A stretch of 64,000 bases of DNA. It comes from Escherichia coli (GTDB taxonomy: Bacteria > Pseudomonadota > Gammaproteobacteria > Enterobacterales > Enterobacteriaceae). Made by a program: the position numbers and the translations under genes. Shown piece by piece: positions 42,252 to 42,889 of this stretch (position 1 is the first letter of the stretch; the number at the start of each line of letters is the position of its first letter). The notes under the pieces are model-generated. The model searched no databases. It saw only the letters and a program-made list of their open reading frames with translations, and was not told the origin of the DNA. The DNA lies in assembly GCF_030013205.1 (NCBI RefSeq), contig NZ_CP122648.1. One strand, written 5' to 3'.

Positions 42252-42705
42252 CCATATAACCCGTTATCTCTTTCTCAAGATTTTATATTAGCAGTACTCG
42301 TATTAAGCAACATATCCACGTAACACCTCATGTTCAAAATAGCTCTCCATATATGAGAAGTTCACAATTATCGATACAAAAAATCAAATTTAATTAAAGT
42401 GTTAGTTGTATAATACTTAAATCATTAAGAAATTATCATATATTATTTTTTTAATATTGAATTGATGTTTGTTAATTTTTTCTTTAGGATAATAGATTGT
42501 TTTTTAAGCTTATTATTCATTGATTAAGTAATAAATCTGGAAATTTGTCTTTGTTTTGAGGCTAATGAGTGGTTTTACATAACCGTCTCTATAGGCTGTT
42601 GATGAATAGTTCTTATGAATAAAGATATCCAGTTCATACTTTAAATGAAAATTGATAAAGTACGGTTTGCGTTGTCTTTTATTCTAAGGACATCGAGTGT
42701 AGTTA

Positions 42706-42843
42706 ATATTCCTTGTAACAACAGGGATAAACCGAACTAGTTAAAGTTTTTATTATGTTCCCTGCATCAGCGGGGATAAACCGGACTTGTTATCATTTTT
42801 TAAGTTGTCGAACTTATGTTCCCCACGTCAGCGGGGATAACCA
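42706..42843 (+). CRISPR. decayed CRISPR mini-array (3 degenerate repeat units, spacers of 20 and 32 bp)
   Basis: Units ending ...acagggataaaccg (42734), atgttccctgcatcagcggggataaaccg (42755-42783), atgttccccacgtcagcggggataacc (42816-42843); same orientation as main array, preceded by an AT-rich tract. Confidence 0.6.
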
Positions 42844-42889
42844 TTCAGGTATGTTCAGGCTGGGCAGTTTTCCGCCCGGCCTACCTCAT

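Follow-up and report, generated by a model that had tools for sequence, protein, structure and literature searches.

The three degenerate repeats that lie at positions 42706 to 42843 of the window (the whole stretch of Escherichia coli DNA that was analysed, 64,000 nucleotides) very probably represent an element that already bears a name: CRISPR2.2, the distal, vestigial mini-array of the CRISPR-II locus in E. coli, in which two fixed spacers lie between three degenerate repeats of type I-E. We put the probability of this identification at about 0.85, because the queE and ygcE flanks, the 0.5-kb distance and the anatomy all agree with the description in the literature. The CRISPR-II locus (ygcE-ygcF) is known to carry either one array (CRISPR2.2-3) or CRISPR2.2 and CRISPR2.3 placed 0.5 kb apart (PMC3903273). 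CRISPR2.2 has been defined as three repeats and two invariable spacers (PMC4489801), and leaders have been named for CRISPR2.1 and CRISPR2.3 only (PMC3737337). The names follow Diez-Villasenor et al. 2010 in the form presented by PMC3903273, PMC4489801 and PMC3737337; CRISPR2.2 matches part of the "CRISPR2" of Touchon and Rocha 2010 (PMC2886076). The feature in the window occupies the ygcE/ygcF interval on the ygcE side, about 0.5 kb from CRISPR2.3, and contains three repeats and two invariable spacers. Being a long-catalogued element of E. coli that is routinely seen in CRISPR typing, it has little discovery value. What the analysis contributes is a corrected anatomy (unit 1 is full length, a leader could not be demonstrated, and the upstream tract opens with two additional decayed units) and the recognition that the remnant is more conserved than the neutral DNA flanking it.

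The locus and its three repeat units

The elements of the region, in window coordinates, are the following.

40969..41640, + strand: queE (ygcF), left flanking core gene of CRISPR-II; 223-aa ORF, queE in the 100% identical record NZ_CP122643.1
41641..41978, + strand: leader2.3, functional leader of the main array
41979..42251, + strand: CRISPR2.3, the main array; five repeats and four spacers, annotated as CRISPR in RefSeq
42252..42312, + strand: spacer-like 32 nt followed by the strongly decayed repeat psi-U0 (about 42284-42312)
42340..42368, + strand: psi-U0b, a second decayed repeat remnant
42369..42705, no strand: AT-rich core of the 0.45-kb tract
42706..42734, + strand: CRISPR2.2 unit 1, ATATTCCTTGTAACAACAGGGATAAACCG; full length, 19/29
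42735..42754, + strand: CRISPR2.2 spacer 1, 20 nt, invariant
42755..42783, + strand: CRISPR2.2 unit 2, ATGTTCCCTGCATCAGCGGGGATAAACCG; 24/29
42784..42815, + strand: CRISPR2.2 spacer 2, 32 nt, invariant
42816..42843, + strand: CRISPR2.2 unit 3, ancestral terminal repeat; 1-nt deletion, last base A
42858..42881, no strand: GC-rich hairpin just beyond the ygcE stop codon, read from the sequence
42890..44368, - strand: ygcE (FGGY-family kinase), right flanking gene
59295..61994, + strand: cas3 of a complete type I-E cas operon, from the ORF list and the annotation of the identical record

The repeats of the main array start at 41979, 42040, 42101, 42162 and 42223, the last of them being a variant (T13, A29). 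The genome has the cognate cas genes: the cas3-casABCDE-cas1-cas2 operon is complete and begins at position 59295 of the window, with casA starting at about 62.1 kb and the remaining cas genes, as well as CRISPR2.1, lying past the window's end. The locus region is 100% identical between the window and E. coli ETEC4079. At least 80% of the interval 42253-42889 is carried by 4123 of 5426 complete E. coli genomes (about three quarters), and the last 70 bp or so are retained alone in some 420 of the 5426. The allele found in the window is rare, with an identity of at least 99% in 23 of the 4541 matching genomes; most others are 90-95% identical. RefSeq CRISPR features end at the main array, and CRISPR2.2 is unannotated in every record inspected.

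Several side observations concern the surroundings of the locus. From queE to ygcE (40969-44368), the window departs from K-12 more strongly, and more unevenly, than is usual for two members of one species: the difference at four-fold sites is 23.5% in queE and 12% in ygcE, and blocks with 8-16% nucleotide divergence are interleaved with near-identical blocks. This alternation suggests a recombination mosaic around the CRISPR-II locus. According to the annotation of the identical record, a Hok/Gef-family toxin gene (about 58948-59100, + strand) lies between cysH and cas3, directly upstream of the cas operon. The same RefSeq record shows an internal stop in ygcG (39803-40830, - strand) and a frameshift in a yqcG-like small gene beside queE.

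The repeat units were scored by ungapped comparison with the main-array consensus, GAGTTCCCCGCGCCAGCGGGGATAAACCG. Unit 2 (at 42755) matches at 24 of 29 positions, unit 3 (at 42816) at 22 and unit 1 (at 42706) at 19; where at least two repeats matching the 29-nt consensus are expected of a type I-E (repeat cluster 2) array, three are found. An earlier note on this DNA had described three eroded units with five mismatches, an indel and a truncated first member. The three units were recovered at 42706-42734, 42755-42783 and 42816-42843; the five mismatches are those of unit 2, and the indel is a one-nucleotide deletion in unit 3, which has lost an A (ATAAACC to ATAACC). The truncation, in contrast, was an error: unit 1 has its full 29 nt and keeps its hairpin, its 10 substitutions all falling within the first 18 nt and the last 11 nt being intact. 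Spacers of 20 and 32 bp, as announced in the note, occupy 42735-42754 and 42784-42815. The period is 49 nt from unit 1 to unit 2 and 61 nt from unit 2 to unit 3, and spacer 1 is exactly 12 nt below the standard spacer length. The distance of about 450 bp from the main array was likewise accurate, as was the common orientation (a gap of 453 bp, 42252-42705, same strand, with a GC content of 16-36%). As a side observation, spacer 1 (42735-42754) resembles the first 19 nt of spacer 2 (42784-42802) at 14 of 19 positions with one gap. The likeness is statistically weak (12/20 when anchored and ungapped, p about 0.02; p range 0.02-0.09), and it is only suggestive of spacer 1 being a decayed copy of spacer 2, left by an old tandem repeat-spacer duplication and a later loss of 12 nt.

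Might these units be a chance or low-complexity resemblance to the repeat, the concern raised in the earlier note? A score of 19/29, as reached by unit 1, is equalled at two unrelated sites in the window. However, a repeat search allowing three mismatches gave no hits in 100 shuffles; beyond the identified repeats, no site on either strand of the 64 kb scores above 19/29, so that units 2 and 3 are unmatched elsewhere. Moreover, the units are spaced in register (49 and 61 nt), form identically shaped hairpins and occur in thousands of genomes, and unit 3 terminates bona fide arrays (see below). The concern can thus be put aside, the probability of mere resemblance being minute. Unit 1 is a genuine repeat despite its 19/29 score, because it is identical to unit 2 at 23 of 29 positions, carries a perfect GGGATAAACCG at its 3' end, stands in register and forms a hairpin of the consensus shape.

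All three units are predicted to fold into one hairpin with a 7-bp stem and a 4-nt loop, the shape recognised by Cas6e. In unit 1 the hairpin survives thanks to two double changes from C-G to U-A, together with one G-U pair; that of unit 2 (-12.1 kcal/mol) includes one G-U pair. In the window allele of unit 3, a G to A change at 42825 produces an A-C mismatch that breaks one stem pair, and the fold energy is -9.7 kcal/mol versus -15.1 for the common allele. The A at 42825 is private (1 of 54 sequences). The GC-rich hairpin at 42858..42881 is present in all Escherichia loci examined, and the terminator scan made no canonical terminator call there.

The AT-rich tract

A separate AT-rich, leader-like region had been placed upstream of the three units by the earlier note. 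The AT-richness stands (GC 16-36%), but the likeness to a leader does not, the tract having neither a profile match nor an IHF site. Leader2.3 shows about 91-92% conservation in E. albertii and the divergent lineage E69; it has a perfect IHF consensus at 41863, a second site with a single mismatch at 41948 (31 nt ahead of repeat 1) and two promoter-like sites. An nhmmer profile built from six Escherichia leader2.3 sequences and run on the tracts of the window, K-12 and E69 (a 2.7-kb search) found no match in any of the three lineages, the best E value being 1.3. When pairwise local leader/tract alignments were compared with dinucleotide shuffles, the similarity stood out only for the allele of the window (1-2 of 300); it was weaker for K-12 (15 of 300) and absent for E69 (299 of 300), and the K-12 similarity maps to other leader coordinates than that of the window allele. 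Homology of the tract to the leader was rejected on these grounds, the profile being null and the pairwise signals not reproducible across lineages; the leader motifs that 41641-41978 and 42252-42705 had been suspected of sharing were therefore not borne out. Shuffle-controlled pairwise alignment of leader2.1 with the tract gave no convincing match either. No IHF consensus occurs within about 190 nt upstream of unit 1, the tract has no promoter-like site on the + strand, and its promoters and terminators do not rise above shuffle expectation. An adjacent leader with an IHF site and a promoter, one of the marks of a type I-E array, was not found beside CRISPR2.2. That the tract is a leader is not supported by these comparisons; it may be a long-dead leader that has drifted past recognition, since neutral divergence at this locus is high.

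The first 120 bp or so of the tract are decayed array, with two further repeat units, and not leader. At the psi-U0 position, exactly 61 nt after the last good repeat, the E69 lineage (locus L007) has TCGTTCCCTGTATCAGCAATAAATAACAT, which matches the consensus at 15 of 29 positions (per-position P about 2e-4, or about 9e-5 on a transition-weighted score). At the psi-U0b position, +117 nt from the last repeat, K-12 has TAGTTCTCCATGCCAGAGAGGTTCACAAT, with 17 matches of 29, a score never reached in shuffles and assigned about 2e-5 on the transition-weighted scale. The counterparts in the window (about 42284-42312 and 42340-42368) are more eroded, psi-U0b scoring 11/29 in this allele. The trailer of the main array reaches into the AT-rich tract by two further decayed units.

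The core that follows (42369..42705, about 340 bp, GC 16-33%) is the most polymorphic part of the queE-ygcE intergenic region. The ORF list contains no ORF of at least 30 aa lying wholly within it. One ORF touches the core (31 aa, 42645-42740, + strand) and runs past its 3' end into unit 1 and spacer 1. It was considered as a small protein and rejected: the start codon is ATG in the window allele only and GTG in the other nine isolate alleles aligned, E69 included, the differences between lineages are mostly non-synonymous, and the ORF is annotated in no RefSeq record. It is probably spurious. An Rfam search returned no credible family, the lone hit being sub-threshold (16 bits, E = 0.31) and situated in the main array. 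A mobile-element origin of the tract was likewise rejected, as there is no phage match and a single copy per E. coli genome; in plasmid databases the only matches were mislabelled chromosomes and one weak, unrelated match to a Borreliella plasmid (E = 0.01).

Descent of the split architecture

A search for intact arrays elsewhere in Escherichia, proposed in the earlier note, was carried out and turned up fused arrays ending in unit 3 in B2 strains, in E. albertii and in E. whittamii. In elppa4, Nissle 1917 and GmF052, whose fused arrays have five, two and one repeats respectively, the array finishes with GAGTTCCCCGC..CAGCGGGGATAACC and an ATTCAGG flank; the two positions behind GC vary among the three strains. 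Such an end combines the 5' half of a normal repeat with the 3' half of unit 3 and its flank. The 3' end of unit 3, GGGGATAACC, together with a near-identical flank, closes the arrays of elppa4, Nissle 1917, GmF052, E. whittamii and E. albertii (ATTCAGG; ATTTAGG in E. albertii). Unit 3 is thus the ancestral terminal repeat of the whole locus, since this very unit closes the array in single-array strains and sister species. No repeats separate queE from ygcE in Citrobacter, Enterobacter, Klebsiella, Cedecea, Buttiauxella and others, where the two convergent genes stand 40-100 bp from each other. The queE-ygcE array is specific to Escherichia, an innovation of this genus.

The split architecture is shared by E69 (CP089930), a lineage whose ygcE four-fold sites differ by 23-29% from those of four E. 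coli strains that differ by at most 18% among themselves; its tract is 76% identical. By parsimony, the split form would predate E. coli sensu stricto, since it is present in this outgroup-like lineage; if it is ancestral, the fused arrays of B2 strains would then have arisen secondarily, by deletions that joined a CRISPR2.3 repeat to unit 3. No further E69-like divergent alleles were found among RefSeq E. coli. Losses of single units are seen in 33F4 (L094, 2501-3074) and two metagenome alleles, where unit 2 and spacer 2 are missing (61 bp), and in E69 (L007, 6520-6620), where spacer 1 and unit 2 are missing (49 bp); both variants fit a loss of units that would proceed by repeat-repeat recombination. 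Two other loci were noted on the side. A divergent lineage deposited as "E. coli", SCPM-O-B-8794 (L036, 6478-6617), has 140 bp of unrelated sequence at this place, in which neither a leader nor repeats occur. Escherichia sp. MOD1-EC7003 (L008, 6536-6970) has an array whose terminal repeat is shortened to GGGGGATAACC and whose leader side has been replaced by unrelated DNA with no match to leader2.3 or queE.

The earlier note had seen in the feature either the fossil of an older array or a duplication of leader plus array that then degenerated. The fossil is supported by the lack of spacer turnover (see below), the missing IHF site, the shared terminal repeat and the two further decayed units, whereas the duplication fails on the leader profile, which finds nothing in the tract (E > 1). 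More broadly, the tract could be a dead leader belonging either to a tandem duplicate of leader2.3 plus array or to a second, independently founded array. An AT-rich tract directly upstream in the same orientation agrees with this, as does the succession of decayed main-array end, tract and better-preserved units; in the window allele, moreover, the alignment of leader 41883-41966 with tract 42450-42534 exceeds shuffles (1-2 of 300). We nevertheless regard a two-module origin as unlikely: the profile is null in three tract lineages, the pairwise signal is allele-specific, with matching words such as TAGATTGT not conserved in K-12, and neither similarity to leader2.1, nor an IHF site at the required position, nor promoter enrichment is found. 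A different history, possible although doubtful, has CRISPR2.3 and CRISPR2.2 once continuous, with about 340 bp of foreign AT-rich DNA coming between the units, a step that could have occurred as an aberrant giant "spacer" or by illegitimate recombination. Decayed units stand on both sides of the core (psi-U0 and psi-U0b on the left, unit 1 on the right), its GC content of 16-33% is unlike the remainder of the region, only one array, closed by unit 3, is present in the outgroups E. albertii and E. whittamii, and "long spacers" of at least 100 nt have been recorded in E. coli arrays (PMC4524480). Against such an insertion, searches of phages, plasmids and the rest of E. coli genomes yielded no donor, a reading of the sequence revealed neither a target-site duplication nor IS ends, and the fused arrays are equally explained by deletion, which is seen directly at a smaller scale. 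The reading as a relic has its own difficulties. The hairpin of unit 1 survived through two compensatory changes; and psi-U0 and psi-U0b are nearer to the main array yet more decayed than units 1-3, so that decay is not a simple gradient along one array.

Frozen spacers and conservation of CRISPR2.2

Polymorphism was assessed in 54 sequences representing 37 haplotypes. Spacers 1 and 2 are invariant save for singletons, and the only changes are deletions of whole units; variation of spacer content between strains, as is usual for arrays, is thus not seen in CRISPR2.2. As a vestigial mini-array, CRISPR2.2 is frozen, offering no entry point to Cas1-Cas2, because there is no leader-like sequence upstream and no IHF site at the required distance. 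Read-through transcription from the leader2.3 promoter is conceivable, since no terminator-like site occurs between that promoter and unit 3. If transcribed, units 2 and 3 could still be cut by Cas6e and would yield a near-canonical crRNA with spacer 2. Most alleles have the predicted parts of such a crRNA, namely the handle AUAAACCG, 32 nt of spacer and an undamaged hairpin; in the window strain the unit-3 stem is weakened. Protospacers for the two spacers were sought in phages, plasmids and IMG/VR, and apart from the locus itself the search returned nothing but chance matches of low GC content that have no PAM. Most likely, CRISPR2.2 contributes nothing to immunity today, because no target is known for its spacers. 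Deletion of CRISPR-II in K-12 barely alters Cascade binding genome-wide (PMC5904413).

The sequence has changed less than its surroundings. Non-singleton segregating sites amount to 5 of 138 positions in CRISPR2.2 versus 66 of 499 in the rest of the intergenic region (Fisher p = 7e-4), and to 1 of 81 in the segment formed by spacer 1, unit 2 and spacer 2. In the adjacent third of the tract plus the ygcE flank the count is 23 of 216 (p = 0.016 vs CRISPR2.2; p = 0.007 vs spacer 1, unit 2 and spacer 2). Polymorphism is thus 3-5 times lower in CRISPR2.2 than in its flanks. When K-12 is aligned with E69, CRISPR2.2 shows 3 differences in 89 sites, compared with 18-32% of sites in the adjacent tract, 15% in the ygcE-side flank and 29% of ygcE four-fold sites. 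Such low polymorphism and near identity to E69 should not be expected of a purely neutral relic. A shallow genealogy at this locus, a cold spot for mutation or a structural role of the hairpins in the convergent ygcE transcript may lie behind this.

Selective maintenance of CRISPR2.2, as a source of non-immune cr-like RNAs (e.g. in Cascade-guided repression) or as a structure or stability element of the ygcE transcript, would, if true, explain the low polymorphism, the near-unchanged copy in E69 (where neutral sites are about 25% different) and the compensatory changes in unit 1, but seems to us improbable. In its regulatory form, this account holds that a cr-like RNA of the CreR/CreA type guides Cascade to a partly complementary chromosomal site and represses without cleavage. 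Besides the conservation itself, units 1 and 2 both keep the 8-nt 5' handle ATAAACCG unaltered, the hairpins are retained, spacer 1 is short of the standard length by exactly 12 nt, and similar degenerate mini-arrays regulate type I-E cas promoters in Salmonella enterica (bioRxiv 10.1101/2023.03.10.532045; PMC10120712). Degenerate mini-arrays have also been predicted in some E. coli cas3-cas8e intergenic regions (same two sources). However, matches of PAM plus seed occur at chance level in the 64-kb window, the regions upstream of cas3 and casA included, and equally at the cas loci of K-12 and ETEC4079 (0-3 hits vs 3-5 in shuffles); local CreR-like targets were rejected on this basis, and the seed-plus-PAM complementarity to a promoter that characterises CreR/CreA was not found in the window or the two cas loci. 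The tract has no promoter-like site on the + strand upstream of the units, and CRISPR2.2 lies 16 kb from the cas operon, not inside it, and persists in BL21-derived strains that have no cas genes (PMC3737337). A conserved regulatory mini-CRISPR is, on balance, quite unlikely. If the conservation nonetheless reflected function, a regulatory cr-like RNA would be added to the repertoire of the best-studied model organism for CRISPR.

Compared with known systems, CRISPR2.2 resembles the creA/creR mini-CRISPRs (the "mini-arrays" of Shmakov et al.) in having few degenerate repeats around conserved spacer-like sequences, a 5' handle kept upstream, a hairpin kept downstream and a conservation above that of the flanks. 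It differs from them in that no PAM-flanked target (in the window and two cas loci) and no promoter of its own were detected, and in that it lies outside the intergenic regions of the cas operon and is present in strains devoid of cas genes. The fused CRISPR2.2-3 arrays (those of E. coli B2 strains Nissle 1917 and LF82 (PMC2941450), of E. albertii and of E. whittamii) share with it the locus, leader2.3 and the terminal GGGGATAACC, but are without the AT-rich tract, units 1 and 2 and both fixed spacers. CRISPR2.2 as described in the literature has the same flanks, the same distance of about 0.5 kb from CRISPR2.3, three type-2 (I-E) repeats, two invariant spacers and no leader assigned; the window differs from it in allelic details only, namely a rare allele and a private G to A change in the stem of unit 3.
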